Of a DNA stretch of 64,000 nt, positions 3,725 to 59,614 are shown in pieces. The notes under the pieces were generated by a model that was not told the origin of the DNA, searched no databases, and saw only the letters and a program-made list of their open reading frames with translations. Made by a program: the position numbers and the translations under genes. The DNA comes from a plasmid, in the sequence record OW969666.1, one strand, 5' to 3'. Within the stretch, counting starts at the first letter, position 1, and every line of letters begins with the position of its first letter.

Positions 3725-3761
3725 TACCGGAGGCCGCCGCCTTCGGGCGGCGGGAACAGAC

Positions 3762-4187
3762 ATGACTATGCAATATGACCTGAACCAAATCAACAAACTG
3801 ACCGCCTCCGACCTGGAGTTTATCCGTCAGCAGGGCGAGGACGCGCGCCGCGCTCTCAGCGATACCGTGACCGGCCTCCTGTCCACACCAGAAGGATGGC
3901 GCGTCTGCGCCGAATACCGCAGCGAGTTCGGCGGCTTCTTCCCCGTCCAGTGCCGCTTCAGCGCGGACGGCAGTGATGACTGGCATCTGTGCGTGTGCAG
4001 CTCCGGCGAAGTCTCACCGTACTGGCTTCTGGTGCTGCTCTCCTCCGGCGGGGAAGTGGTGTGTACCCTTTACCAGAGCGACACGCTCCAGCCTGACCGG
4101 ATACCTGACACGGAAATCGCTTTGCGAAATCCGGTACAGGGACACGGACAGGGAGGTGGCAGCTTTTATGGCTTACGAATCCGCTAA
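3762..4187 (+). CDS. psiB: PsiB-like SOS-inhibition protein with a non-homologous C-terminus
   Basis: [16 protein letters not shown]…[17 protein letters not shown] matches the F PsiB core ([16 protein letters not shown]…); homology is lost over the last ~35 codons. Confidence 0.75.
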
Positions 4188-4191
4188 GTAG
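4096..4191 (+). pseudogene. hok: hok-family toxin 3' fragment (no start codon, no TM helix)
   Basis: Frame-1 translation …[28 protein letters not shown] equals the Hok C-terminal half; overlaps the psiB 3' end in another frame. Confidence 0.7.
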
Positions 4192-4194
4192 CTA

Positions 4195-4225
4195 ACCCCG
4201 GCGGGGGGAAACCCCCGCCATTCAG
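4195..4225 (+). terminator. GC hairpin (hok mRNA 3' fold-back/terminator-like)
   Basis: ggcggggg-aaa-cccccgcc stem-loop immediately after the hok remnant stop. Confidence 0.45.
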
Positions 4226-4515
4226 GGGCTGAGATTGTGTGGACATGCCTGAAGCGCCTTTATGAAGGGGTTGCCGGTTCGCCGGTAGCCCCTTTTTCCT
4301 TCCCGACGCGACCGCACGCCTGAACCTCCGGGAAGGGCTGTTCCCCTGCGGGGAACGGGGGAAGGGGGACGCGCCTTCGGCGCTGCCCCTCTGCTCCCTC
4401 TGCCTGATCCTCCCCCCTGCCTGTCCTGCCTGATTTTGTTGAATTCGAAACTCTGTGAGCTACCTGCTCATACCGGGCTTCAGCCTGGTGTGCCCGATGT
4501 TCTTTATCCCGGGCG

Positions 4516-5125
4516 TCATATCCGGCGTCCTGCCGGTTAACTTTCGCATCTGCAGCTCCGTGGCTATAACCCGAAAACAGGGCAGGGCGATGGCCCCCTT
4601 CGGCTCCCGGCCCGCGTGGCGGTCCGGTCGTCGAGCCCCACTCCGCCAGGTCGGCTGCTGACGCACCCGCCGGGCTCCGCCGAACCCGCAAGCGGTTTCG
4701 GGCTGACGCTAGGGTCTGATGGCTGAGGTCAACCCCCTGGCTTGCACCGGCCGGAGGCCGGGCCGCCCTGAGCGCGCCGGCGGAGCCGTCGCTTTAAGGC
4801 CGCCACGCCGTTCCGACGTGTCGGGTGCGTGCATCCTGTTCACCCGGTGAGGCCATCCCCCGTGCGTCCTCACGCGGAGGGCTGCTTGTAGCACCGTCGG
4901 GTCGTCATCCAAGGGGTGAAATGCACTCCGCCAAAACTTTTTGCGTGCCGCAAAAACTTTTGTCTCCGCCCCTTTCCTTCCGCCCTTCGCCGTTGCTCCT
5001 TTTGCCCTTTGCCGCGAGAGAACTCACCAGGGAGATGGACAACCATCACCACAGGAGAAAACCAGGATGCACACACAAAACGTCAACGTCAAAACCGCCG
5101 CTCCCGAATCTTCCAGGAAGATAGG
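4516..5125 (+). repeat. Leading-region repeat module copy 2 (related sequence extends upstream to ~4330)
   Basis: About 600 bp nearly identical to copy 3; the same operator palindrome and leader. Confidence 0.85.
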
Positions 5126-5381
5126 GGGAAAAACCGTGTCGTACACGATCCTCGTCGCTGAGCAGAAAAAAAACTCAGCGGAGGAACCTGATGTTCTGGA
5201 GTTCAGCAGCCTGGCTGAGCTGAAGAAACTGCGCAGACGCTGCCCCGAAACGATGCGCTGCACCTATTTCTACGCCCTCAGCAGCGGCGTCGATAAACAG
5301 TTCCGCCATATCCATGTGGCTGAAGCTGACCACTTCAAACAGTTTGTGCGCCTGATCGCGCGTGCAGGTATCGACATTTAA
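5066..5381 (+). CDS. Small leading-region protein (105 aa from the shared leader ATG; 81 aa from GTG ~5137 after AGGGGGA)
   Basis: Conserved leader fused in frame to an unrelated body. Confidence 0.5.
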
Positions 5382-5441
5382 ACACGGTTCACCCCGTGCG
5401 GCAGCCGCCGCACGGAACCTCATAAGACAGGAGCCAGAAAT

Positions 5442-5903
5442 ATGAACGTTAACACCCCGGCCGCTGCACCAATGGCCTTTTTCGTTCCGTCCCATAACGC
5501 CGTTTATGACCGCGCAACCCAGCTGGAAGGGCAGTGGGTGACTCAGCGTGAAGCGATAACGCTGGAATCCCTGCGCCGTCTCTATCCGGATGCGGAGCTG
5601 ATCCCCGCGACTCTGGTTCAGGAAAAGCAGAATGACGGCTATCGCCGTCCCTGGGTGGAAATCACCGGGGCCCGGTACATCGACCAGCTGGAAACGCTGC
5701 CGCCAGTGGACTGGTGCAGAGGGTATGGCGGGGAGTCGTTCAAATCGATGGAGTTTACGGGCGGGGATGTGACCGCAATTTTCGTCCGGTACGGCGCGCG
5801 TTTCTTTGAGTGCCATGACCTGCACACCCGCCATCACCGGGAGCTGATTGGCGACGTGATCGCCCGTTTCTGTCTCGATGCGCCGCTGAATTCCGCGCAT
5901 TAA
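5442..5903 (+). CDS. Hypothetical protein, 153 aa
   Basis: RBS CAGGAG 8 nt upstream; no family recognised. Confidence 0.6.
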   Translation: MNVNTPAAAPMAFFVPSHNAVYDRATQLEGQWVTQREAITLESLRRLYPDAELIPATLVQEKQNDGYRRPWVEITGARYIDQLETLPPVDWCRGYGGESFKSMEFTGGDVTAIFVRYGARFFECHDLHTRHHRELIGDVIARFCLDAPLNSAH

Positions 5904-5989
5904 AAAAGCAGGGTTGCCCCTGCTTTCTCAACGCCGGGTAGCCGCAGCAACGGTGAACCGGCAATCACAACCAAAGTAAGGAGATTGAT

Positions 5990-6191
5990 CGTGAAATTTG
6001 ACCCGCAAACTGTCGCACAGGCGAAGGCATTTGTAAATGCCCTCCGCGCCGGAAAACGCGCTCGCGTACCCGCGCTGCGCTTCTCACAGTGGCAGCCGTT
6101 CCTGTCCGTGGTAAATGCCGAAACGGGCTACGCCACCGATGCTGACTGTGGTCTGGCTGTCAGCGTCTACCCGGCGCTTGGACTGGCTTAA
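5990..6191 (+). CDS. Small hypothetical protein (~67 aa, GTG start)
   Basis: RBS AAGGAG upstream of GTG. Confidence 0.4.
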
Positions 6192-6231
6192 CAGGAGACG
6201 GCCGCCTGCGGGCGGCCGGTAAGGAGAAACC

Positions 6232-7023
6232 ATGTCACAACTGAGTTTTGAATCCCTGTTCCTGGCAGACCAGGCTGATCTGCAGCCGCGGGCTTCCGCA
6301 CCGGCCCGGATGCTGTCGCCAGCTGAGGCGCGTAAACAGTTCGCCAGTGTGTTCCGGCAAACGGCGAAAAATATGCGCCGTTCCGAAGTGTTCAGTGACT
6401 TCATCACCCTGGCAGCCAGCGAGCTGGATCTGGCCCGTATTCGTTCGCCGGAGAACATCGAAAACAGCCGTCGCATCTGCGCACGGTATCAGCCGGACGA
6501 TTTAGACGCCATGAAGCAGCTGTTCTGCCTGTTGGTTGAGGGGCTGGCGGGTGACATTCATGATTTCCTCGGCGCTCTGTATATGGAGCAGGAGCTGGGC
6601 GCGGACGAAATGGGGCAGTATTTCTCTCCGTCCTGCATCTCCCGTCTGATGGCCGGACTACTCATGCCCGGCGCTCAGGAGACGATAAAGCGTGAGGGGT
6701 GGATGACGCTCGATGAGCCAGCCTGCGGCAGCGCCGGTATGGTCATTGCCTTTGCATACTGGATGGCTGAAGCGGGATATAACCCGTCTGAACAGCTATA
6801 TGCCACCTGCACCGACATCGATCCAATGGTGGCTGATATGGCCTTTATCCAGCTGGCTCTGCTGGGTATTCCCGCGAAAGTCGTGACCGGTAATACGCTG
6901 ACCCTGAAAGCGAACCGCGTGCGTTACACCCCCGTGTATTACTTCAATGACTGGCAGGGCCGTCTGGCATTTCGCAGTCGTCTGGATGCAATGAAGAACT
7001 TTCTGGCCACCGTGGCCGCCTGA
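6232..7023 (+). CDS. N6-adenine methyltransferase-like protein, 263 aa, catalytic motif IV not detectable
   Basis: GQYFSP… and LDEPACGSAGMV (SAM-binding motif I-like) present; no NPPY/NPPF/DPPY; too short for a full methyltransferase plus target-recognition domain. Confidence 0.6.
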   Translation: MSQLSFESLFLADQADLQPRASAPARMLSPAEARKQFASVFRQTAKNMRRSEVFSDFITLAASELDLARIRSPENIENSRRICARYQPDDLDAMKQLFCLLVEGLAGDIHDFLGALYMEQELGADEMGQYFSPSCISRLMAGLLMPGAQETIKREGWMTLDEPACGSAGMVIAFAYWMAEAGYNPSEQLYATCTDIDPMVADMAFIQLALLGIPAKVVTGNTLTLKANRVRYTPVYYFNDWQGRLAFRSRLDAMKNFLATVAA

Positions 7024-44668: not shown

Positions 44669-45488
44669 GGCACTGTTGCAAATAGTCGGTGGTGATAAAC
44701 TTATCATCCCCTTTTGCTGATGGAGCTGCACATGAACCCATTCAAAGGCCGGCATTTTCAGCGTGACATCATTCTGTGGGCCGTACGCTGGTACTGCAAA
44801 TACGGCATCAGTTACCGTGAGCTGCAGGAGATGCTGGCTGAACGCGGAGTGAATGTCGATCACTCCACGATTTACCGCTGGGTTCAGCGTTATGCGCCTG
44901 AAATGGAAAAACGGCTGCGCTGGTACTGGCGTAACCCTTCCGATCTTTGCCCGTGGCACATGGATGAAACCTACGTGAAGGTCAATGGCCGCTGGGCGTA
45001 TCTGTACCGGGCCGTCGACAGCCGGGGCCGCACTGTCGATTTTTATCTCTCCTCCCGTCGTAACAGCAAAGCTGCATACCGGTTTCTGGGTAAAATCCTC
45101 AACAACGTGAAGAAGTGGCAGATCCCGCGATTCATCAACACGGATAAAGCGCCCGCCTATGGTCGCGCGCTTGCTCTGCTCAAACGCGAAGGCCGGTGCC
45201 CGTCTGACGTTGAACACCGACAGATTAAGTACCGGAACAACGTGATTGAATGCGATCATGGCAAACTGAAACGGATAATCGGCGCCACGCTGGGATTTAA
45301 ATCCATGAAGACGGCTTACGCCACCATCAAAGGTATTGAGGTGATGCGTGCACTACGCAAAGGCCAGGCCTCAGCATTTTATTATGGTGATCCCCTGGGC
45401 GAAATGCGCCTGGTAAGCAGAGTTTTTGAAATGTAAGGCCTTTGAATAAGACAAAAGGCTGCCTCATCGCTAACTTTGCAACAGTGCC
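44669..45488 (+). mobile_element. IS26 (820 bp), no flanking direct repeat
   Basis: 14-bp inverted repeats GGCACTGTTGCAAA…TTTGCAACAGTGCC; flanks are ctaaaaaa and ctcgaaaa (not identical). Confidence 0.95.
44732..45436 (+). CDS. tnpA: IS26 transposase Tnp26, 234 aa
   Basis: MNPFKGRHFQRDIILWAVRWYCKYGISYRELQEM… full-length match to IS6-family Tnp26. Confidence 0.95.
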   Translation: MNPFKGRHFQRDIILWAVRWYCKYGISYRELQEMLAERGVNVDHSTIYRWVQRYAPEMEKRLRWYWRNPSDLCPWHMDETYVKVNGRWAYLYRAVDSRGRTVDFYLSSRRNSKAAYRFLGKILNNVKKWQIPRFINTDKAPAYGRALALLKREGRCPSDVEHRQIKYRNNVIECDHGKLKRIIGATLGFKSMKTAYATIKGIEVMRALRKGQASAFYYGDPLGEMRLVSRVFEM

Positions 45489-45710
45489 CTCGAAAATAGT
45501 TCTTGAAATTCTATTCTTGATTGCATATCATCTCAACGAGTTTCGATAAGAAAGGATGCGCATGCGACCGTCTGGTTCGCTGGTGGGCAAGGAGGCAGCA
45601 GCCGACACGCTCATCGGCAACTGCACGACCGCACGACCAGCCTCCCGTTCAAATTCGAGTTAGAACTCATATCCAGCCTGTCTGGGGGCACTGTGAAAGA
45701 GGGATCTCCG

Positions 45711-46067
45711 ATGACTGTTGAATCGAGAATATTTTCTGTAGCCGAGTATGTTCAGCCGTCCGAAGGCGAGCCTATTCGTTCCGTTGTGCTTGAAACCCGA
45801 GACTCAATTATCGTGGTTTGGCATGTCCATCCCGGGCAGGAAATTGCGGCTCACATTCATCCTCACGGCCAAGACACGTGGACTGTTTTGTCGGGAATGG
45901 CTGATTACTTTCAGGGCAATGGGATTGTTCGTGCCCTCAGGGAAGGTGAGATAGCCGTGGCAAGACCGGGCCAAGTGCACGGGGCGCGAAATACAGGTAC
46001 CGAGCCATTTGTGTTCGTCTCGGTTGTGGCATCAGCCAATGCCGGTTTCGTATTGGCTGAGCGATAG
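45711..46067 (+). CDS. Cupin-domain protein, ~118 aa
   Basis: Two-His motifs HVHPGQEIAAHIHPHGQD…G…H typical of the cupin fold. Confidence 0.55.
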   Translation: MTVESRIFSVAEYVQPSEGEPIRSVVLETRDSIIVVWHVHPGQEIAAHIHPHGQDTWTVLSGMADYFQGNGIVRALREGEIAVARPGQVHGARNTGTEPFVFVSVVASANAGFVLAER

Positions 46068-46321
46068 AGCCCAATCTCTGGAGTTGGTCCAATGAGCGGT
46101 CGGGGAGATAGGTAACAGACATGCAGCGGACACGGCTGCTAAACCAGGTCGCAAACCTCCTTGCGTCGCAGCGTGCCGCAAGCGACGCGATCAATCGAAT
46201 GGGGTCGGCATGAGACTGAACACCATCCAGTTCCCGACCGCGTAGCCGCCTGTCCTGCCGATCAGGTCTTGACCATCGACGCCTGGGATCAGTCCTGAAT
46301 GTTCTTGGAGACCACTACGTT

Positions 46322-46648
46322 ATGAGCCGCAGCCGCCGCAAAACACCCATCGTCGGGCACACGACCTGCGGCAGCGAGCGCGAGGACAAGAAGCTCTGGC
46401 ATCAGCGCTGGCGCACCCGTGAGCGCACGGCGCTGACCAGCGCGTCGCCCGAAGCCCTGAGCGCCCATCTGCCCCTGCTGGAAAACCAGGCCAGCAGCGT
46501 CTGGTCGATGGGCAAGGATGGCCGCTCCTACTGGCCCGTCAAGCGCCAGGCCGCCACGGCGGATCGCATCGCCAATCACAAGGGACGCAACCCGCAAGAA
46601 CGCGCCTCCCTGAAAAAGCGCCTGCTGCGCAAGTGGATGAGCAAATGA
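46322..46648 (+). CDS. Hypothetical basic protein, 108 aa; first gene of a four-gene recombinase operon
   Basis: ATGA overlap with the next gene. Confidence 0.5.
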   Translation: MSRSRRKTPIVGHTTCGSEREDKKLWHQRWRTRERTALTSASPEALSAHLPLLENQASSVWSMGKDGRSYWPVKRQAATADRIANHKGRNPQERASLKKRLLRKWMSK

Positions 46649-46700
46649 AGCTCTCCTTCCATCAGCACATTGCGCTGTTCTGGATGATCGGTGCTCCGGG
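46645..46700 (+). pseudogene. 5' fragment of a 3-TM membrane-protein gene split by the Tn5053-family insertion
   Basis: Frame …MIGAPG continues in frame across the removed transposon into 56475-56924 (…VFAPVIENAK…). Confidence 0.6.
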
Positions 46701-46725
46701 TGTCACTTTCAGAAGGCGACAGCAC
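46701..46725 (+). repeat. Tn402/Tn5053-type IRi
   Basis: 21 of 25 identical to IRt in inverse orientation. Confidence 0.8.
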
Positions 46726-46785
46726 GAAATATCAAAAGTCGACCGCACGGTCTTTTCTGACGTTGGAGTCGCCTCAGAAAACGGA

Positions 46786-48112
46786 ATCTATGGTCACTCC
46801 CGTTTTTGCAACACCGATTTTGACGACAAGTTGGCTTGCTTGAATCTATCCGGCGTCTGAATGGGATTTTATTCCCGCGCCTTGATGAGTTCCGCGCCTG
46901 ATGAACCTCCAGAAAATATACGGCTTCAATGAGCCTTTCCGTTTTACAGGTTCCTCAACAGGCCGGTGGGCCGTTAGTATCATCAATATCAGTATTCGCA
47001 AAACCAGATCAGTAATTCTTTAAACCGGTGTATTTCTGCCGTTATGCTACATAAGTTTGCTGTCGTGCCGTTAGGGCCCAGGCTATTCTGGCCAGCTTGT
47101 TTGCCAGAGCACAAGTGACGACAAAGTTGCTTTTCCGGCACAGTAAATCCCTGACCCAATCGGCCAATTTGCCAGACTGGTGTTCCAGTTTTTGTATGAA
47201 TACCCTGGCACATTGAACCAACAAAGTTCGGATCTTTTTATTACCTCGCTTACTAATTCCCAGCAATGTCGTCCTACCTCCCGTGCTGTACTGCCGAGGT
47301 ACAAGCCCTGTTGCCGCCGCAAAGTCACGGCTGCTGGCGTACTGCTTCCCGTCGCCAATCTCAGTTGAAATAGTACTCGCTGTCAGTGTTCCGACGCAGG
47401 GAATGCTCAGCAAGCGCTGTCCAACCTCATCTTCGTCCAACTTTCGTTTCAACTGGGATTCCAAATCTTTAATCTGCTCAACAAGATAGTGATAATGCTG
47501 TTGTAATTTCAGCAATAACTGGCTGAGGTAAAGAGGCAAACTATTATCCTCAAGAATGGTACTCAGTCGGCTAATAACGGCAGCTCCTCGGGGAACGCTA
47601 ATGCCAAATTCCAGCAGAAAAGCATGCATTTGATTGGTTGTTTTTACCTTATCCTGAACCAGGGATTCACGGACACGATGCAGAGCCCGCATTGCCTGCT
47701 GAGATTCCGTTCTGGGCTGCACAAAACGCATAGACGGACGCGATGCAGCTTCACAAATAGCTTCGGCGTCGACAAAGTCGTTTTTATTGCTTTTAACGAA
47801 CGGGCGGACAAATTGTGGTGATATCAGCTTTGGGGAATGCCCCAACTCTTCCAACTTGCGTGCCATAAAGTGAGAACCGCCACAGGCTTCCATTGCGATG
47901 GTTGTAGCGGGGCATGTCGCCAAAAATTCGATCAACTTTGGCCGGGTAAATTTTTTACGGTAAACAGCCTTCCCGCGACGATCCTGGCAATGAATATGGA
48001 AAGAGTTTTTACCCAGATCGATACCAATGAGCGCAATGTTTTCCATGATAGTTCTCCGAATGAAAGCCTGTCCTCAGCATAGTACCGGGAAGGAGGGAGT
48101 GACCATCTCATT
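46786..48112 (-). mobile_element. IS4321/IS5075-like element (IS110 family, IS1111 group), 1327 bp, copy 1
   Basis: Inserted at the characteristic position inside a Tn21-type inverted repeat; identical inverted copy at 57855-59181. Confidence 0.9.
47042..48046 (-). CDS. IS110-family transposase, 334 aa
   Basis: MENIALIGIDLGKNSFHIH… N-terminal DEDD RuvC-like region typical of IS110/IS1111 transposases. Confidence 0.9.
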   Translation of the reverse strand: MENIALIGIDLGKNSFHIHCQDRRGKAVYRKKFTRPKLIEFLATCPATTIAMEACGGSHFMARKLEELGHSPKLISPQFVRPFVKSNKNDFVDAEAICEAASRPSMRFVQPRTESQQAMRALHRVRESLVQDKVKTTNQMHAFLLEFGISVPRGAAVISRLSTILEDNSLPLYLSQLLLKLQQHYHYLVEQIKDLESQLKRKLDEDEVGQRLLSIPCVGTLTASTISTEIGDGKQYASSRDFAAATGLVPRQYSTGGRTTLLGISKRGNKKIRTLLVQCARVFIQKLEHQSGKLADWVRDLLCRKSNFVVTCALANKLARIAWALTARQQTYVA

Positions 48113-48145
48113 AAATAAAGCACGCTAAGGCGTAGTTCCCTCGGG

Positions 48146-48580
48146 CTACACCGCGTCCGCACTGCGCGGTTCTTTCTTCCCTTGCAGTGACGCAATCAGC
48201 GGGCAGGAAACGTTCCCCTTCCGCGCATGGCAGGCGCACACCAAATCAGACAGCACGGCCTCCATGCGCGCCAGGTCAGCCATCCTCTCGCGCACGTCCT
48301 TGAGCTTGTGCTCGGCCAGGCTGCTGGCTTCCTCGCAATGGGTGCCATCCTCCAGCCGCAGCAGCTCGGCGATCTCATCCAGGCTGAAACCCAACCGCTG
48401 GGCTGATTTCACGAAGCGCACCCGCGTTACATCCGTCTCGCCATAGCGGCGAATGCTGCCGTAAGGCTTGTCCGGTTCCGGGAGCAAGCCCTTGCGCTGA
48501 TAGAACCGGATGGTCTCCACATTGACCCCGGCCGTCCTGGCGAAAACGCCAATGGTCAGGTTCTCCAAATTGTTTTCCAT
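48146..48580 (-). CDS. merR: MerR mercury-responsive regulator
   Basis: [14 protein letters not shown]… near-identical to Tn21/Tn501 MerR. Confidence 0.95.
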
Positions 48581-48651
48581 ATCGCTTGACTCCGTACATA
48601 ACTACGGAAGTAAGCTTAAGCTATCCAATTCAGATTCGAAAGGACAAACGT
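48581..48651. promoter_or_regulatory. mer operator/promoter (divergent PmerR/PmerT)
   Basis: Intergenic region between divergent merR and merT; dyad tccgtacat-N-ctacggaag. Confidence 0.7.
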
Positions 48652-49002
48652 ATGTCTGAACCTCAAAACGGGCGCGGCGCGCTCTTCACTGGCGGGCTGG
48701 CCGCCATCCTCGCCTCGGCTTGCTGCCTCGGGCCGCTGGTTCTGATCGCCTTGGGGTTCAGCGGCGCTTGGATCGGCAACTTGACGGTGTTGGAACCCTA
48801 TCGCCCCATCTTTATCGGCGTGGCGCTGGTGGCGTTGTTCTTCGCCTGGCGGCGCATCTACCGGCCGTCAGCCGCCTGCAAACCGGGTGAGGTTTGCGCG
48901 ATTCCCCAAGTGCGAGCTACTTACAAGCTCATTTTCTGGGGCGTGGCCGTGCTGGTTTTGGTCGCGCTCGGATTTCCCTACGTCGTGCCATTTTTCTATT
49001 GA
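48652..49002 (+). CDS. merT: MerT mercuric ion transporter
   Basis: 116 aa; CC pair in the first TM helix. Confidence 0.95.
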   Translation: MSEPQNGRGALFTGGLAAILASACCLGPLVLIALGFSGAWIGNLTVLEPYRPIFIGVALVALFFAWRRIYRPSAACKPGEVCAIPQVRATYKLIFWGVAVLVLVALGFPYVVPFFY

Positions 49003-49017
49003 TCACAGGAGTTCACC

Positions 49018-51184
<2,167 letters not shown>

Positions 51185-51200
51185 AAAAAGGAGGTTTTCA

Positions 51201-51566
51201 ATGAGCGCCTACACCGTGTCCCGGCTGGCCCTTGATGCCGGGGTGAGCGTGCATATCGTGCGCGACTACCTGCTGCGCGGATTGCTGCGTCCGGTGGCGT
51301 GCACCCCGGGCGGCTATGGCCTGTTCGATGATGCCGCCTTGCAACGGCTGTGCTTCGTGCGGGCGGCCTTCGAGGCGGGCATCGGCCTGGACGCGCTGGC
51401 GCGGCTGTGCCGGGCGCTGGATGCTGCGGACGGCGATGAAGCGGCCGCGCAGCTTGCCGTTCTGCGCCAGTTCGTCGAGCGTCGGCGCGAAGCGTTGGCC
51501 GATCTGGAGGTGCAGTTGGCCACCATGCCGACCGAGCCGGCACAGCACGCGGAGAGTCTGCCATGA
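51201..51566 (+). CDS. merD: MerD co-regulator
   Basis: 121 aa MerR-like HTH. Confidence 0.9.
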
Positions 51567-51799
51567 ACAGCCCCGAGCGCTTGCCGTCCGAGACGCACAA
51601 ACCGATCACCGGCTACCTGTGGGGCGCGCTGGCCGTGCTCACCTGTCCCTGCCATTTGCCGATTCTCGCCATTGTGCTGGCCGGCACGACGGCCGGCGCG
51701 TTCATCGGAGAGTACTGGGGTATCGCAGCCCTCACGCTGACCGGTTTGTTCGTCCTGTCTGTGACACGACTGCTGCGGGCCTTCAAAGATCGATCATGA
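51563..51799 (+). CDS. merE: MerE
   Basis: 78 aa, two TM helices, CPC motif. Confidence 0.85.
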
Positions 51800-51851
51800 G
51801 CGCTTCCCATTGAGACAAACCACGCTGTCGCTACGTTGCCTCATGCCGGCA

Positions 51852-52466
51852 TCAAATTCGGCTGAGTAGCTTCTCGCCATCTGGACGTAGCTCACCCTTG
51901 GGTGAAACATGCCGATACAGGGTCTGCCGCGTGACGCCAAGTTCCTGGCACAGGTCGCCGACCTTGGTCTCTGGCTGACCCATTGCCGCCATCGCCAGCC
52001 GCAGCTTGGCGGCGGTCATCTTGAACGGCCGGCCGCCTTTCCGCCCGCGCGCGCGGGCCGAGGCTAGGCCGGCAATCGTGCGCTCCGCGATCAACTCGCG
52101 CTCGAACTCGGCCAGGGCGGCGAAGATGCCAAAGACCAGCTTGCCGGCGGCGGTCGTGGTGTCGATGGCCGCGCCGTGCCCGGTTAATACCTTCAAGCCG
52201 ATGCCGCGCCCAGTCAGGTCGTGCACGGTGTTGATGAGATGTCGCAGGTCGCGTCCGAGCCGATCCAGTTTCCACACGACCAGTGTGTCGCCAGTTCGCA
52301 ACGCCTTCAGGCAGCTCGTCAAGCCGGGCCGATCCTCGCGCATGCCGGATGCCTGGTCCTCGTAAAGATGTACTGGATCGACCCCGGCGGCAATCAGCGC
52401 GTCGCGCTGCAAATCGGTAGCCTGGGAGCCGTCCGCCTTCGATACCCGCATGTAGCCTATCAGCAT
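51852..52466 (-). CDS. tniR: TniR (TniC) serine resolvase of the Tn402/Tn5053 tni module
   Basis: MLIGYMRVSKADGSQATDLQRDAL…; 204 aa. Confidence 0.9.
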   Translation of the reverse strand: MLIGYMRVSKADGSQATDLQRDALIAAGVDPVHLYEDQASGMREDRPGLTSCLKALRTGDTLVVWKLDRLGRDLRHLINTVHDLTGRGIGLKVLTGHGAAIDTTTAAGKLVFGIFAALAEFERELIAERTIAGLASARARGRKGGRPFKMTAAKLRLAMAAMGQPETKVGDLCQELGVTRQTLYRHVSPKGELRPDGEKLLSRI

Positions 52467-52560
52467 GTCGTACCTGTCACATATACGTTCGATTATGTGA
52501 CAGTGTGAGCCAGAAAGCTCTCGCCGTCAAAAACTGTCACTTAACCCGTCATTTAGTCTA
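52467..52560. promoter_or_regulatory. Putative res site of the tni module (extent uncertain)
   Basis: TGTCACATATACGTTCGATTATGTGACA imperfect palindrome plus further TGTCAC repeats between tniR and tniQ. Confidence 0.5.
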
Positions 52561-53744
52561 AGACCTGCAAACGGCCATTCAGGCTCGTAATGTGACAAAA
52601 ACTCCGGCGGGATGCCCTCCTTGGTGAACGTGGCGCGCAAACGTTCCAGGGATTCGGGGTCGCGTCGCCCGTAGGACGCCAGTGTGAACAGCAAGCGGGC
52701 CGTCTCCGGGTTGTGTCGCGCTTCAATGATGGCCTCATCGATGGCCTGGGCTGCTCGTTGCCAGTGGTTGATGGGTTCCGGCTTCGGCACCTTCGCCGGC
52801 AGGCCGTTGGTGAAACCAGTGTACGGCTCCGTCTGAAACAGCGCGGCCTGTTCCCCGCGCGGGATCAGCGCCTTTGACTCGATCAGCGTGATGGCGGTGG
52901 CCGCCGCCTCCAGCATCTGCCACTGCACCGCCGGGGCCAGAATCTCGTAGGGACGCCACAGACTCTGCCCGGCGCGCAGCGGATGGCCGCAGCGCTCCCA
53001 GACATGGCGGATGCTCGCCGAGCAACTGCCGCAGTGCGAGAGCGGCGTGTTCAGCTCATCAAGCAGGGTGCGCAGCAGCCGGAACCACAAGCCGGCGTGG
53101 ACACGCCGACGCGGCAGCTCCACAAAACCCGTCGTCAGCGCCTGCCAGGTGCGCCGGTCCATGCAGGCGATTGCGTCATCGGCAGGGCGCGGCGCAGCAT
53201 CGGCGATTTCCCACTGAAGATACCGGCCGGGCATGCCCCAGTAGGACTCCAGCCAGCAGCCATGCTGCGGGCAGCTCAGCATCAAGGGGAGCTGCCAGAC
53301 GAGTAGCACAGCTTGATTCGTTGGATCGTTCAGACACTGCGGACACGCCCGGCGAATCGTCTGGCTCGGTAGCCAGGCACGCCAGCGAGTGATGGACCGC
53401 ACCTTGCGGGTGCGCTTGGGCAGGAGCACCGCGCATTGGAATGTATAGGTTTCCAAGGCTGCTGGTACCGAATCGTCGAGACTGTCGAGCAGCCACGGCA
53501 CCCAGCCTGCAAGACTCATGCTGCGCAACCGCTCCAGCTCGACGCCACTGCGCTGGCAGAGCGCCGTCAGCAACGACAAGGATGGTGCGGTATCCAGGTC
53601 ATCAAGTTGGCTGTGACCAAGATCGTGGGCCAGCAGCTCGTGCACGTCCATCTGGTAGCAGGCGGCGACCCGGTTGAGCCATGAGGACAGGGCTTCGCCT
53701 TCCTTGGGTGCCGGATGCAGCGGCCAGCGCGGCGCGGACTTCAC
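52527..53744 (-). CDS. tniQ: TniQ
   Basis: 405 aa, in tni gene order. Confidence 0.85.
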   Translation of the reverse strand: MKSAPRWPLHPAPKEGEALSSWLNRVAACYQMDVHELLAHDLGHSQLDDLDTAPSLSLLTALCQRSGVELERLRSMSLAGWVPWLLDSLDDSVPAALETYTFQCAVLLPKRTRKVRSITRWRAWLPSQTIRRACPQCLNDPTNQAVLLVWQLPLMLSCPQHGCWLESYWGMPGRYLQWEIADAAPRPADDAIACMDRRTWQALTTGFVELPRRRVHAGLWFRLLRTLLDELNTPLSHCGSCSASIRHVWERCGHPLRAGQSLWRPYEILAPAVQWQMLEAAATAITLIESKALIPRGEQAALFQTEPYTGFTNGLPAKVPKPEPINHWQRAAQAIDEAIIEARHNPETARLLFTLASYGRRDPESLERLRATFTKEGIPPEFLSHYEPEWPFAGLRLNDGLSDSF

Positions 53745-54658
53745 ATCAGTTCCCGCTCGAACTGTCGCCGCCGCTCACTGGGGCCGATGTAGTCGGCCAT
53801 GCTGAGCGTGCGGTGGTTGATCGCTTCCTCGCCACTCTCCACGGCGGCGACGGCCGCCGCCACCAGCAGATGTGCAAGCTCGCCGATGGTGCCTTCGCTC
53901 CGGGTGAGCAGGTAGCGGGCCATGTCCAGCGTGGCAATCGGGGATGGCCGCCGTAGCGGGAGTGACGCCGCGAAGCTGGCCAGCAGCGAGCAGCAGTCCT
54001 CATTGGCCTCCCACGGCGGCAGCAGCATCGGCTCGAAGCGGTTTTCCAACTGATCGTCCGAACGGATGGCCAGGTACGCCTCGCGCGTGCCGACCCCGAC
54101 CAGGGGGATACGCAGCTCGTTGCCGAGGAAGCGCAGCAGGTTGAGGAACTCGCGCCGGTTAACGCTGTTGCCAGCCAGTACATTGTGCAGTTCGTCGATC
54201 ACCAGCATGCGCACGCCGACCTTGCGCAGCAGGGCCAGCGCCAGTTGCTCCATTTCCGGCAGCCGTGGGCGCGGGCGCAGCGGCGCGCCCATCGCAGCCA
54301 GCAGCGCGACATAGAAGCGGATCACCGATGGCTCTGACGGCATCTGCACGACCAGCACCGGGATATGTTCTTGGTCAGCGTCGGTGCCGACCGGGTGCGC
54401 CCGCCGGAATTTCTCGACGATCATCGACTTGCCGTTGTTGGTGGGGCCGACCAGCAGCAGGTTTGGCATGCGTTGCTTGTTCGGCCACGCATACAGAGTT
54501 TCCAGCCGGTTCAGCGCCTCGACCGCGCGCGGGTAGCCGATCCAGCGGTCGGCGCGAATGCGCTGGATGCGCTCGTCTGCCGGCAGCCTGGCCAAACCCT
54601 GTGCCGCTGGCAGCAGGTGGGACAGGTCAATGACGGGATATTCGTCCACGGCTACCAC
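53741..54658 (-). CDS. tniB: TniB AAA+ ATPase
   Basis: Walker A LVGPTNNGKS. Confidence 0.9.
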   Translation of the reverse strand: MVAVDEYPVIDLSHLLPAAQGLARLPADERIQRIRADRWIGYPRAVEALNRLETLYAWPNKQRMPNLLLVGPTNNGKSMIVEKFRRAHPVGTDADQEHIPVLVVQMPSEPSVIRFYVALLAAMGAPLRPRPRLPEMEQLALALLRKVGVRMLVIDELHNVLAGNSVNRREFLNLLRFLGNELRIPLVGVGTREAYLAIRSDDQLENRFEPMLLPPWEANEDCCSLLASFAASLPLRRPSPIATLDMARYLLTRSEGTIGELAHLLVAAAVAAVESGEEAINHRTLSMADYIGPSERRRQFERELM

Positions 54659-56331
54659 TCCTCGATCTGATCGAACGGTTTGGCCGGCGGCAGGTTGTCT
54701 GCCTGCGGGTCAGCCATGTCCACATCCGGCGGTATGGGCTTGGCCGGTGGCTCCGACGTCTTGAGGTGCTGGCGGCGATCAGCGTCGCGCCGCGCCTTGC
54801 GCGTGGCCTTCTGGGCGGTGGTCACGATCTCGCGCATCTGCCCGATCATGCGGAACAGCGCCGACTCGTCCACCTGCTCGCGCCCGAGCTGACGCAATTT
54901 GGCCAGCGCCTGGCGTTGTTCCCAGAGGGTGACGGCCGGATGGGACAAGGTGCGGTAGTGGATCTCCAGATAGTGCTGACCTTCCGGTTCCAGTACCCAG
55001 ATGCGGCTGATGTCGCGCGGATCGCGCCGGATCAGGAAGGCGGGCAAGCGCTCGCGCCGGGCAATCCACGGCTTGAGGGCGTCGGCGTAGTAGTGGATGT
55101 GGTCGATGACAAAGCCGGTGCGGGTCAGGGTGCGGCGGATCACCGGCAGGAAATCGACCAAAAACGCGGTGGGGCGGGTAACGACGGCCGGGACGCCAAC
55201 GCGCTCCACGGCCTCGGCCCAGCGCGCGGCCGGCGGCTGGAGCAGGCCGTTGTGCACGGAGCCGTGATAGGTGCCTACCGCCAACGCGAGCCAGCGCTCC
55301 AGCTCGCGCAGCGTCAGGGTGGCCATCTTCTCGGAATCGTACTCGCCGCGCTGGCCGGGATTGGAGAAGGTCGTCCCCGGTAATTCGTCGTGGATCATCT
55401 GCATCGCCGTGCCGATGATCCGTTCCACGATGCCGCCGTAGTGCGGCTGGCCTGGTGGGCGATAGTCCAGCCGGATGCCATGCTGTTCGCAGCCACGGCG
55501 CAGCGCTTCGCTTTTGAACTCGGCCGCGTTGTCCAGATAGAGCAGCCTGGGCTTGCCGCTCATCGGCCAGTCCATTTCCACATTCAGCCCTTCCAGCCAG
55601 GGCCGCTTGTCGCAGGCGGCATGCGCGAGGCATAGGCCGACCGAGACGGCGGACGGCGCTTCCAGCGTGACCACCATGCCGAGTACGCAGCGCGTGAACA
55701 CGTCGATGGCGAGGGTCAAATATGGGCGGCCAATCGGTTGCCGGTCGCGCTCGTCGACCACGATCAGGTCGATGACGGTGTGGTCGATCTGCACCTGTTC
55801 CAGCGGCATGGTGACTTCGGGCGGAATGCCACCCGCGCCTTGCAAGGGACGGGCAGCGTCCTGCCCGCCCCGGCTGCGGGCTATTTTCGCCGGATGTAGT
55901 CCGGCAATCCGCTGGGCCACGGTGTTGCGCGCCGGCACCGGCAGCTTCTGGGTTTTGCACGCCTGCGCGACTTCGCGGTGGAACGCCGCCAGGCTGCGTT
56001 TCTGCTTGGTCAGGAAGCGCTTTTGCAGCAGCTCGCGGATGATGCGCTCGACCGGTTCCGGCAAGCGCCCCTTGCCTTTGCCGCCGCCGGATCGGCCGGG
56101 CGTCAGGTCTGTTACCAGGCCAGTACCCTGCCGGGCGCGACGGATCAGGACATATACCTGTCGCCGGGACAGGCCCAGCGCTTGGGCTGCCTCATCGGCG
56201 GCTTCATGCCCGACCACCTCAAGCGCTGCCAGTGGCCCGATGATTTCCGTCCGGTGCCGGGCTTGCGCCCATGCCTCGTCGGGCAGGGTGGCCACGCCTT
56301 GCGCGGCAATCGGTGGAGTGTCTGATGTCAT
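54652..56331 (-). CDS. tniA: TniA DDE transposase, 559 aa from the internal ATG
   Basis: MTSDTPPIAAQGVATLPDEAW… matches the Tn402/Tn5053 TniA N-terminus; the track ORF start 56424 is an upstream extension. Confidence 0.9.
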   Translation of the reverse strand: MTSDTPPIAAQGVATLPDEAWAQARHRTEIIGPLAALEVVGHEAADEAAQALGLSRRQVYVLIRRARQGTGLVTDLTPGRSGGGKGKGRLPEPVERIIRELLQKRFLTKQKRSLAAFHREVAQACKTQKLPVPARNTVAQRIAGLHPAKIARSRGGQDAARPLQGAGGIPPEVTMPLEQVQIDHTVIDLIVVDERDRQPIGRPYLTLAIDVFTRCVLGMVVTLEAPSAVSVGLCLAHAACDKRPWLEGLNVEMDWPMSGKPRLLYLDNAAEFKSEALRRGCEQHGIRLDYRPPGQPHYGGIVERIIGTAMQMIHDELPGTTFSNPGQRGEYDSEKMATLTLRELERWLALAVGTYHGSVHNGLLQPPAARWAEAVERVGVPAVVTRPTAFLVDFLPVIRRTLTRTGFVIDHIHYYADALKPWIARRERLPAFLIRRDPRDISRIWVLEPEGQHYLEIHYRTLSHPAVTLWEQRQALAKLRQLGREQVDESALFRMIGQMREIVTTAQKATRKARRDADRRQHLKTSEPPAKPIPPDVDMADPQADNLPPAKPFDQIEEW

Positions 56332-56449
56332 GCCCAAACCTCGCTTTGGTGCACACGAGTATTGAGCATAGTCGAGATTGGTGCAGACGACTCCTGATAT
56401 TGGGCTGTCAGGAGCCGTATGCACACCAGGCGTTACATCCAGTCAGATG

Positions 56450-56474
56450 GTGCGGTCGTCTTCTGAAAACGACA
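56450..56474 (-). repeat. Tn402/Tn5053-type IRt
   Basis: Plus strand gtgcggtcgtcttctgaaaacgaca; followed by ccggg. Confidence 0.85.
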
Positions 56475-56924
56475 CCGGGCGTCTTCGCGCCCGTGATCGA
56501 GAACGCCAAGCGGCCCGATGCCGGCGCCGTCATGGCGTGGGGTGTCGCGATCGTGGCGGTGATGATCCTCTTCACCCCTTTGCTGCTGCGCTGTCCACCA
56601 TTCCGGCGCTGGTATGGCCGGACGGATGCGCTGTCGGAGCGGCAGCGCCAGGCGCTTGCCGAGCGCGGCCTGCGCCGCTACTACCAGACCGCTTTCGATG
56701 ACGGCTACGTGCCCCGCGTGATGCCCTACGTGTGGCGCATCATCTGGACGGTCGGCGGGTTGATGGCTGTGACCGCCGTACTGCCTACCAACACCGGACG
56801 GCCAGCCTTCGATGCCTTGGTGGTCTTCTCGACCTGGTATCCGATAGGCGTGATGCTGCTGGTTTTCGCGTCGAGGCCCCTTGGCCGGTTGATTCGCCAA
56901 AGAGCACAGGAGCGGCGGAAATGA
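56475..56924 (+). pseudogene. 3' fragment of the split 3-TM membrane-protein gene
   Basis: …PGVFAPVIENAKRPDAGAVMAWGVAIVAVMILF… in frame with 46645-46700 once the transposon and one copy of CCGGG are removed. Confidence 0.6.
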
Positions 56925-57292
56925 GCACGTCAACCATCGAGGCGCTGGCCAGCGCCTGGGCAAGGATTGCCGAGGAAGCGGAATTCCCCGCTGACTACGA
57001 GGGGACTGCCACACCACAAGCGCATCGGGCTAGCGAAGCTATTCAGGAGCAGATTCGGGAGCGCATCGTCGCCACCAACGACATGCGGCTGTTCAGCCTG
57101 CTGCACCTGCTGGGTCAGGCGTCGCTGCGCATGGAGCAAGCGCTGTGGCCGGAGGATTACGAGCGGATGACGCGCGAGGTTGAGGAAGCCCTGCGGCAAG
57201 CCACCGACGCCAACGCCAGATCGTACACCCACGAAGAAGTGATGCAGGCGATGCAGGAACGCATCGACCGGGCGCGAGACAAGCCATGTTGA
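56921..57292 (+). CDS. Hypothetical protein, 123 aa (third gene of the operon)
   Basis: ATGA overlaps at both junctions. Confidence 0.55.
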   Translation: MSTSTIEALASAWARIAEEAEFPADYEGTATPQAHRASEAIQEQIRERIVATNDMRLFSLLHLLGQASLRMEQALWPEDYERMTREVEEALRQATDANARSYTHEEVMQAMQERIDRARDKPC

Positions 57293-57843
57293 TTGGCTAT
57301 GCGCGCGTCTCGACGCAGGATCAGAACCTGGAGCTGCAACGCGAAGCCTTGAGCAAGGCCGGATGTAAAAAGGTCTTCGAGGACAAGGTGAGTGGCACGC
57401 GGGCAGACCGGCCTGGCTTGGCCAAGACGCTCGAAATGCTGCGCGAAGGCGATACTTTGGTCGTCTGGAAGCTCGACCGGCTGGGCCGGTCGGTCAAGCA
57501 ACTGGTCGATCTGGTCGGCGATCTGCACAAGCACGGTGTCCAGTTCAGGAGCCTCACCGACTCCATCGACACCGGCACACCATCCGGGCGGTTCTTCTTC
57601 CACGTCATGGCGAGCCTTGCCGAAATGGAGCGCGAGCTGACCGTCGAGCGCACCCGCGCCGGGCTGGAAGTCGCCAAGCAGCTCGGCCGCAAAGGCGGCC
57701 GCAAGCCGAAGATGACCGACAGCAAGATCGAGTCGGCCAAGAAGCTGCTGGCCAGCGGGGTGCCGCCCAAGGACGTGGCCAAGAACCTCGGCGTGTCCAT
57801 TCCGACGCTGTACCGCTGGGTGCCAGCCTCCACGCACGCTTAG
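57286..57843 (+). CDS. Serine recombinase/resolvase, 185 aa
   Basis: MLIGYARVSTQDQNLELQ… catalytic Ser region; C-terminal HTH; stop overlaps the Tn21-type inverted repeat. Confidence 0.85.
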   Translation: MLIGYARVSTQDQNLELQREALSKAGCKKVFEDKVSGTRADRPGLAKTLEMLREGDTLVVWKLDRLGRSVKQLVDLVGDLHKHGVQFRSLTDSIDTGTPSGRFFFHVMASLAEMERELTVERTRAGLEVAKQLGRKGGRKPKMTDSKIESAKKLLASGVPPKDVAKNLGVSIPTLYRWVPASTHA

Positions 57844-57854
57844 CGTGCTTTATT

Positions 57855-59181
57855 TAATGAGATGGTCACTCCCTCCTTCCCGGTACTATGCTGAGGACAG
57901 GCTTTCATTCGGAGAACTATCATGGAAAACATTGCGCTCATTGGTATCGATCTGGGTAAAAACTCTTTCCATATTCATTGCCAGGATCGTCGCGGGAAGG
58001 CTGTTTACCGTAAAAAATTTACCCGGCCAAAGTTGATCGAATTTTTGGCGACATGCCCCGCTACAACCATCGCAATGGAAGCCTGTGGCGGTTCTCACTT
58101 TATGGCACGCAAGTTGGAAGAGTTGGGGCATTCCCCAAAGCTGATATCACCACAATTTGTCCGCCCGTTCGTTAAAAGCAATAAAAACGACTTTGTCGAC
58201 GCCGAAGCTATTTGTGAAGCTGCATCGCGTCCGTCTATGCGTTTTGTGCAGCCCAGAACGGAATCTCAGCAGGCAATGCGGGCTCTGCATCGTGTCCGTG
58301 AATCCCTGGTTCAGGATAAGGTAAAAACAACCAATCAAATGCATGCTTTTCTGCTGGAATTTGGCATTAGCGTTCCCCGAGGAGCTGCCGTTATTAGCCG
58401 ACTGAGTACCATTCTTGAGGATAATAGTTTGCCTCTTTACCTCAGCCAGTTATTGCTGAAATTACAACAGCATTATCACTATCTTGTTGAGCAGATTAAA
58501 GATTTGGAATCCCAGTTGAAACGAAAGTTGGACGAAGATGAGGTTGGACAGCGCTTGCTGAGCATTCCCTGCGTCGGAACACTGACAGCGAGTACTATTT
58601 CAACTGAGATTGGCGACGGGAAGCAGTACGCCAGCAGCCGTGACTTTGCGGCGGCAACAGGGCTTGTACCTCGGCAGTACAGCACGGGAGGTAGGACGAC
58701 ATTGCTGGGAATTAGTAAGCGAGGTAATAAAAAGATCCGAACTTTGTTGGTTCAATGTGCCAGGGTATTCATACAAAAACTGGAACACCAGTCTGGCAAA
58801 TTGGCCGATTGGGTCAGGGATTTACTGTGCCGGAAAAGCAACTTTGTCGTCACTTGTGCTCTGGCAAACAAGCTGGCCAGAATAGCCTGGGCCCTAACGG
58901 CACGACAGCAAACTTATGTAGCATAACGGCAGAAATACACCGGTTTAAAGAATTACTGATCTGGTTTTGCGAATACTGATATTGATGATACTAACGGCCC
59001 ACCGGCCTGTTGAGGAACCTGTAAAACGGAAAGGCTCATTGAAGCCGTATATTTTCTGGAGGTTCATCAGGCGCGGAACTCATCAAGGCGCGGGAATAAA
59101 ATCCCATTCAGACGCCGGATAGATTCAAGCAAGCCAACTTGTCGTCAAAATCGGTGTTGCAAAAACGGGAGTGACCATAGA
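57855..59181 (+). mobile_element. IS4321/IS5075-like element, 1327 bp, copy 2 (inverted relative to copy 1)
   Basis: Sequence is the reverse complement of 46786-48112. Confidence 0.9.
57922..58926 (+). CDS. IS110-family transposase, 334 aa (identical to 47042-48046)
   Basis: Identical protein. Confidence 0.9.
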   Translation: MENIALIGIDLGKNSFHIHCQDRRGKAVYRKKFTRPKLIEFLATCPATTIAMEACGGSHFMARKLEELGHSPKLISPQFVRPFVKSNKNDFVDAEAICEAASRPSMRFVQPRTESQQAMRALHRVRESLVQDKVKTTNQMHAFLLEFGISVPRGAAVISRLSTILEDNSLPLYLSQLLLKLQQHYHYLVEQIKDLESQLKRKLDEDEVGQRLLSIPCVGTLTASTISTEIGDGKQYASSRDFAAATGLVPRQYSTGGRTTLLGISKRGNKKIRTLLVQCARVFIQKLEHQSGKLADWVRDLLCRKSNFVVTCALANKLARIAWALTARQQTYVA

Positions 59182-59614
59182 TTCCGTTTTCTGAGACGAC
59201 CCCAACCAGCTACATACGATCATAAGTGACACAACATTAATATGAAGCGACATTCACCAAATGAACCTTCGTCATTTCAGATAGTTAGCTTACTTGCATG
59301 TCCTCATCCCATGAAGGGGAGGGCCTACCCCTGGCATCGAGCAAAACTGACCACCCTGCCCTTATTAAGACCCCACATGCGGCAATGGTGCCCTGTCCAC
59401 GCCGCCCGCGATTTTTGAGGAAATGGGAAGAAAATAAAAAGAAAACAAAAAGTTATCGGCTGAAGTATCGGCGCAGATCGGGAATCAGGCGAAGCCTGAC
59501 AGCACGTTGGGGCCTGGCAGGGGGCTTGAGGGATGAGGACATGCAACTCTGATAGCCTTCCCGCCACGGGGTCGGTTAAATTCGTATCCGGCCGGTGCAA
59601 TTCCAACGGCCGCG

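Follow-up and report, generated by a model that had tools for sequence, protein, structure and literature searches.

A Tn5053-type mercury transposon inserted in orf166 of ISPa38, away from the res-hunter hot spot and in reverse orientation

Introduction

The prototype of the mercury transposon Tn5053 reportedly comes from Xanthomonas sp. W17 and is said to have been described by Kholodii et al. in 1993/1995 as GenBank L40585. Here we analyzed a complete transposon of Tn5053 type that occupies positions 46701-56474 of a 64,000-nucleotide stretch of plasmid DNA (sequence record OW969666.1; the whole stretch is called the window). We found that it interrupts orf166, a gene of the Tn3-family transposon ISPa38, away from the intergenic hot spot that such res-site hunters occupy in this carrier and in the reverse orientation.

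In the Tn5053 family, the preferred orientation places the inverted repeat IRo (also named IRi) nearest the resolvase gene, and transposition to sites other than res is rare but observed (PMC7765201). According to the same paper, which cites Petrovski and Stanisich (2010), Tn502 makes random insertions at low frequency. Insertion beside res with IRo near the resolvase is a trait of single events and is not needed for membership of the family.

Tn6317 consists of Tn5058b in a remnant of Tn6256, which is related to TnPa38 (plasmid pP10164-2; the same structure is found in pSTm-A54650, which stands in for it here). It resembles the window in that a Tn5053-family mer transposon is nested in a carrier of ISPa38/TnPa38 type, whose inverted repeats (IRs) are split by IS4321 (PMC5034289). 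However, its res hunter sits at the hot spot (about ISPa38 3052) with IRi toward the recombinase operon, whereas the window copy lies in orf166 at ISPa38 5054-5058 and is reversed. Tn6603::Tn5053 and Tn6603::Tn502 of Pseudomonas aeruginosa (Rajabal, Stanisich and Petrovski 2020) are likewise nested in a carrier of the Tn21/Tn501 family with cargo of unassigned function, and an open reading frame (ORF) separates res from tnpR, as in ISPa38. Those insertions, however, are inside resI-resII and in the canonical orientation, and the carrier is a different one, with a Tn501-like resolvase instead of the Gin-like recombinase of ISPa38. The random insertions of Tn502 and Tn512, which PMC7765201 cites from Petrovski and Stanisich (2010), resemble the window copy in their low frequency, their non-res sites and their normal 5-bp duplications; they were made in experimental targets without parA-res, whereas the carrier in the window had an intact candidate res nearby.

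Ends and target of the mercury transposon

The 25-bp terminal inverted repeats of the element are IRi (IRo) at 46701-46725 on the plus strand (TGTCACTTTCAGAAGGCGACAGCAC) and IRt, at the tniA end, at 56450-56474 on the minus strand (reverse complement TGTCGTTTTCAGAAGACGACCGCAC), and 21 of their 25 positions are alike in inverted orientation. A 5-bp target duplication, CCGGG, flanks the element at 46696-46700 and 56475-56479. The left junction (46696-46725) reads GGTGCTCCGGG followed by TGTCACTTTCAGAAGGCGACAGCAC, and the right junction (56450-56479) reads GTGCGGTCGTCTTCTGAAAACGACA followed by CCGGGCGTC. When 46701-56479 was removed, at least 763 plasmid records, e.g. pFBAOT6 of Aeromonas caviae, matched the 800-bp restored target at 100% identity, indicating that the boundaries and the duplication are real and not due to chance. 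Both Tn402-type ends, which the original prediction had placed at about 46701 and 56474, and the identical CCGGG flanks that it had seen are therefore present, and the uninterrupted copies to which it had pointed exist in those same plasmids.

A BLAST comparison with the ISPa38 of pFBAOT6 showed that the flanks are ISPa38 and not plasmid backbone. ISPa38 (also named TnPa38 and related to Tn6256) is a 6456-bp transposon of the Tn3 family, Tn21 subgroup, with Tn21-type 38-bp IRs (PMC12466754; PMC5034289). Its tnpA gene is directed leftward and is followed rightward by MNT, HEPN, a small ORF, cupin, orf108, orf166, orf123 and tnpR, and then by the right inverted repeat (IRR). The host of the insertion, previously left unrecognized, was thus identified by sequence match, and the orientation of the insertion in it is non-canonical.

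The insertion lies at ISPa38 5054-5058, at codons 18/19 of orf166, so that the first 56 nt of the gene run from 46645 on the plus strand (annotation of identical records) and its 3' part (WP_003100856.1) is at 56480-56924 on the same strand. The restored gene translates to a hydrophobic protein of 166 aa with two strong and about two weaker hydrophobic segments and with no match to a Pfam family. It had been described as a gene with three transmembrane segments that was split in frame: the interruption stands and the number of segments is approximate, while 'in frame' is not a term that applies to insertions. The distance of about 810 bp to the serine recombinase gene held up well, measuring 807 bp from the right duplication to the tnpR start codon at 57286.

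The hot spot used by res hunters in ISPa38

We scanned for the IRi of Tn5053 over one genome per species, and an exact match to the 38 nt that begin with IRi was found in 46 genome loci. In 8 of these, IRi adjoins ISPa38 at position 3055, 3056, 3057, 3058 or 3083, which gives at least five independent Tn5053 positions within 30 bp, in one orientation throughout, with IRi toward the recombinase operon. In seven more loci, ISPa38 3055 lies 2.1 kb beyond IRi. Among the carriers of Tn5053 in this species-representative genome set, ISPa38 is the most frequent by a wide margin (8-15 of 46 loci). In another 18 loci, IRi lies 76-279 bp from the start of a serine-recombinase gene that points away from it. 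The canonical pattern, with IRi nearest the recombinase gene or operon, was found in 26 other loci, and the orf166 site in none of the 46.

Other elements use the same place. In pSTm-A54650 (locus L011), a Tn5058b-like mer transposon adjoins ISPa38 at about 3052, where GACA is followed by GGCGCGGCACGGG; in pEh11_3, a class 1 integron adjoins exactly the same nucleotide (GGCGC, about 3052) with its IRi, which has another IR sequence. In both, IRi faces the MNT...tnpR operon. These results place the res-hunter hot spot at ISPa38 3052-3083, in the tnpA-MNT intergenic region, which lies 2.8 kb upstream of tnpR with the cargo operon in between. We found no paper that states this hot spot or its share among the carriers. 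The loci with insertions at ISPa38 3052-3083 are L011, L012, L015, L017, L024, L031, L039, L044, L054 and L055. The seven loci with the more distant IRi (L020, L025, L034, L038, L045, L053 and L057) share the flank CACTGACTTGCT before IRi and a 2149-bp segment between IRi and ISPa38 3055; this segment shows no clear Tn402-type end and does not match the window, with which alone it was compared.

In ISPa38 coordinates, 2.0 kb separate the window copy from the hot spot, a distance that the loss of the toxin-antitoxin (TA) genes from this carrier copy reduces to 1.24 kb. Along the direction of tnpR transcription it runs from IRi to IRt, whereas all canonical copies run from IRt to IRi. The end nearest tnpR is accordingly IRt and not IRi, which departs from the res-adjacent pattern, with IRo near the resolvase, that is usual in the family.

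The hot spot, within the region 3001-3158, is probably the functional res of ISPa38, an assignment that draws on the clustering of insertions and on motifs. The 9-mer TTMTYGAAA, which corresponds to the outer portion of a Hin/Gin half-site, has exactly four occurrences in the 6456 bp of ISPa38, all within 3013-3146, and a fifth, close variant is at 3111. The tnpA-MNT intergenic region has 46% GC compared with 63% in the rest of ISPa38, and because it is the more AT-rich part, the clustering of half-sites is by itself only suggestive. A putative res is also reported for ISPa38/TnPa38 in PMC12466754. The TnpR protein resembles the Gin invertase (PDB Gin 4m6f, E=3e-71, 242 bits) far more strongly than the gamma-delta and Tn3 resolvases (E values of about 1e-29 to 1e-27, about 100 bits). 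TnpR is thus Gin-like although its site is an efficient target of res hunters. A common ISPa38 variant (L004, many Klebsiella plasmids) lacks 84 bp between two direct TTCTTGAAA repeats (3013-3097), a loss that could reflect slippage or recombination between res subsites.

How the insertion in orf166 may have arisen

Since position and orientation are both non-canonical, an event that was not directed by res fits the data better, and we consider an off-res insertion independent of the resolvase to be the probable origin (probability roughly 0.65). Of the two alternatives in the original prediction, the resolvase-independent event is thus the better fit, as an interpretation and not as a demonstration. 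The insertion is atypical in position and orientation and yet within the known behaviour of the family. Several points weigh against an off-res origin. On a plasmid of about 150-200 kb, a random hit would have a chance of about 2% of falling no more than 2 kb from the res of the preferred carrier, before selection against backbone hits; because such a chance landing is unlikely, some influence of res is possible. IRi is still the end that faces res. In addition, the assignment of res, made from insertion clustering and motifs, is putative, as is the activity of TnpR at the time of insertion.

These points lead to the view that the insertion was directed by res but displaced: the TnpR-res complex would have recruited TniQ/TniB, with insertion 1.2-2 kb off on the operon side and IRi toward res, the orientation being set by the position of res and not by that of the resolvase gene. 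IRi is indeed nearest the hot spot in canonical copies and in the window copy alike, near-res 'mis-insertions' have been reported (PMC7765201), and, as seen from pECL_A, the ancestor had an intact intergenic region with no insertion in it. ISPa38 being the commonest carrier, a random landing in the same 6.5-kb element would also be unlikely. However, the documented res-directed insertions, near-res ones included, are all within or next to res and in the canonical orientation, the natural insertions in ISPa38 are confined to about 30 bp, and no second operon-side case was found. To our knowledge, targeting in this family and in Tn7-like systems acts over distances far shorter than 1.2-2 kb, and this counts against the displaced event. 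We therefore regard such displacement as unlikely, and the broader idea that the position of the res-resolvase complex sets the orientation of Tn5053-family elements (IRi facing res) and directs operon-side insertions at kilobase distance as distinctly doubtful.

A cryptic secondary site for the Gin-like recombinase or another resolvase inside orf166, corresponding to the suggestion that a cognate res lies in the coding region, could also have attracted the transposon. The weak hix-like half-sites TTCTGGATGATC and TTCTCGATCAC (reverse complement) flank CCGGG as an imperfect inverted repeat, which is the kind of subsite that the original prediction had in mind around the insertion. These motifs, however, have 2-3 mismatches to the 9-mer, comparable matches are scattered over all of ISPa38, and 24% of ISPa38 positions sit between the arms of an inverted repeat that is just as good, so that the dyad is at chance level and was rejected as a binding-site signal. 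The motif scan of ISPa38 revealed no exact hix-like half-site near 5054, the hot spot lies elsewhere, and the orientation is opposite to the canonical one. Among the ISPa38 breakpoints sampled across the plasmid collection, no other Tn402-family insertion was found near orf166: those at 4680/4684, 5305 and 5524 are all IS26 junctions, and that at 4984 is unrelated and lacks a Tn402-type end. A res inside orf166 is thus not supported, and attraction by a cryptic site is in our judgement very improbable. The structure might also be a product not of direct transposition but of recombination or inversion between two IS4321 copies, or of assembly, as at least 10 plasmids, e.g. pC44_001, do carry an isomer produced by inversion between inverted IS4321 copies. 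In that isomer, which is derived, IRi no longer adjoins the remainder of the transposon; in the window, the same 5 bp are at both ends and excision restores the target exactly, and the arrangement recurs in independently assembled complete plasmids. Recombination and artefact are effectively refuted by the exact restoration of the target.

Under the off-res reading, Tn5053 with an IS4321 in its Tn21-type relic would have entered codon 18/19 of orf166 by ordinary TniA/TniB/TniQ transposition with a 5-bp duplication, in an ISPa38 copy that already lacked the MNT/HEPN genes, and the res-resolvase complex would not have directed the insertion, which would place it in a rare class of events. This single insertion would then have spread among Enterobacter/Klebsiella IncF plasmids. 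Later, a second IS4321 would have entered IRR and, in the window, IS26 would have mediated the loss of tnpA and half of res.

On this reading the window provides a clear case, in nature, of a res hunter failing to hit its res, and the analysis accounts for the make-up of a mercury-resistance island found in circulation on Enterobacter/Klebsiella IncF plasmids. The more useful by-product concerns the carrier: insertions of Tn5053, Tn5058b-type elements and class 1 integrons recur in the ISPa38 intergenic region, which makes it a hot spot. With the putative res and the resolvase gene about 2.7-2.8 kb apart, ISPa38 may serve as a convenient test bed for how the family reads target polarity.

Gene content and identity of the element

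The mer module starts with merR (48146-48580, minus strand; Pfam MerR and RefSeq annotation) and continues on the plus strand with merT (48652-49002), merP (49018-49293), merF (49296-49541; Pfam Transport_MerF and annotation of records), merA (49538-51184), merD (51201-51566) and merE (51563-51799), where merT, merP, merA, merD and merE were assigned from the annotation of 100% identical or homologous records. The transposition genes are all on the minus strand: tniR (51852-52466; a serine recombinase of 204 aa, Pfam Resolvase), tniQ (52527-53744; Pfam TniQ), tniB (53741-54649; Pfam TniB) and tniA (54652-56331; Pfam Mu-transpos_C/rve), the last three also in agreement with RefSeq annotation. 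The spacer between tniR and tniQ is 60 bp (52467-52526), and the putative res of the transposon itself is expected just upstream of tniR. The gene order, merRTPFADE and tniR-tniQBA, agrees with the RefSeq annotation of the 100% identical pECL_A of Enterobacter cloacae ATCC 13047. The traits of the Tn5053 family (25-bp ends, tniA-tniB-tniQ with tniR, 5-bp duplication and a captured mer module) are all present.

Without IS4321 the element is 8447 bp, which matches the size of Tn5053. IS-free copies with the same IRi start, in more than 15 genomes of Pseudomonas, Stutzerimonas and others, many of them environmental, share 99.8-99.9% identity with it over up to 6.7 kb. We infer that the element is probably Tn5053 or a 99.9% identical variant; identity to L40585 was judged from the size, the gene order and the widespread near-identical copies. 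The likeness to Tn5053 covers the 25-bp ends, the merRTPFADE and tniR-tniQ-tniB-tniA order, the 5-bp duplication and the size, and the difference is that the window copy carries IS4321 in an internal relic of a Tn21-type IR. The earlier reading of this segment as a Tn5053-family mer transposon with merF and tniR/tniQBA, about 8.45 kb long apart from an IS4321-like insertion, agrees with the Pfam and RefSeq results, with the computed size and with the IS4321 of 1326 bp found at 46787-48112.

The two IS4321 copies

IS4321 copy A (minus strand; transposase 47042-48046) interrupts a Tn21-type 38-bp IR relic that is part of the captured mer module, next to merR and 64 bp inside IRi. The outer 22 bp of this relic, the IS4321 target, are at 46765-46786 on the plus strand and the inner 17 bp at 48113-48129; the intact relic, GGAGTCGCCTCAGAAAACGGAAAATAAAGCACGCTAAG, is found in IS-free copies. 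Copy B (57856-59181) is inverted relative to copy A and lies in the 38-bp IRR of ISPa38, which it divides into 57839-57855 and 59182-59203 on the plus strand, as judged from the intact IRR of pFBAOT6. Both copies split a 38-bp IR at one relative position, 22 bp from 17 bp. The transposase is WP_000427623.1, of IS4321 in the IS1111 family, and the insertions are site-specific in Tn21-family 38-bp IRs and without duplication, as is the habit of IS4321. The mercury transposon is immobilized by IS4321 and, in some plasmids, by inversion.

The ISPa38 remnant

The window keeps only ISPa38 3086-3171 and 3933-6456, at 99.9-100% identity and with IRR split by IS4321, and this ISPa38 is probably a remnant of its family and not a functional member, as judged from its sequence. 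An IS26 lies at 44669-45488 on the plus strand (terminal repeats at 44669 and 45475-45488; transposase ORF of 240 aa at 44714-45436). The ISPa38 match begins at 45489, the truncation by IS26 being at ISPa38 3085/3086; what lay to the left, with IRL, tnpA and half of the putative res, was lost to it. IS26 adjoins ISPa38 3086 inside the half-site TTCTCGAAA of this res.

The remnant of the tnpA-MNT intergenic region (ISPa38 3086-3171, window 45489-45574, plus strand) is the right part of the putative res and holds the hix-like half-sites TTCTTGAAA, TTCTTGATT and TTATCGAAA (reverse complement). It is followed at 45574/45575 by a 761-bp deletion (ISPa38 3172-3932), in which the MNT/HEPN toxin-antitoxin pair and the small ORF are gone; the deletion begins 13 nt into the MNT gene and is common to the window and pECL_A. 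ISPa38 3933-5058 is at 45575-46700 on the plus strand with 99.9% identity and contains the cupin gene (45693-46067) and orf108 (46322-46648), both on the plus strand and assigned from identical records. To the right of the insertion, ISPa38 5054-6434 is at 56475-57855 and holds, after the 3' part of orf166, the plus-strand genes orf123 (56921-57292; WP_003100853.1, function unassigned) and tnpR (57286-57843), which encodes a serine recombinase of 185 aa (Pfam Resolvase and HTH_7).

Related cargo is carried by a Tn4662a-like transposon (L010, P. putida plasmid NZ_CP142112.1, 6031-6725), with orf108 and orf123 homologues at about 88% nucleotide identity and without orf166, suggesting that orf166 is a separable insert in this block.

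Distribution and related plasmids

The element and its flanks are 100% identical in pECL_A and others. pECL_A has the same MNT/HEPN deletion and the same Tn5053 insertion, and it keeps the whole intergenic region, in which no other res hunter was found, and most of tnpA. Because pECL_A retains the sequence to the left of the IS26 junction, the window is best seen as an IS26-deletion derivative of the pECL_A structure. Public records have contained this exact structure since pECL_A, and it is made of known elements by an ordinary mechanism.

The left junction is common to 24 plasmid records, mainly IncFIB/IncFII plasmids of Enterobacter hormaechei/cloacae, which for the most part also carry the upstream 24.6 kb (window 20000-44600) at 100% identity. 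Since this upstream segment is 100% identical to several Enterobacter IncFIB/IncFII plasmids, the window comes from a plasmid of pECL_A/pC44_001 type. In the plasmids with the inversion isomer, which make up at least ten of the 24 and include pC44_001 (L059, NZ_CP042567.1), the merR...tnpR segment between the inverted IS4321 copies is flipped, and IRi with 61 bp is on the far side in reverse orientation, apart from the rest of Tn5053 (compared with window 46787-59181). Because the duplication flanks both ends only in the window/pECL_A arrangement, the isomer is the derived form. The upstream 24.6 kb also holds TerD-family tellurite-resistance (ter) genes, a PP2C phosphatase and an IS3-family element.

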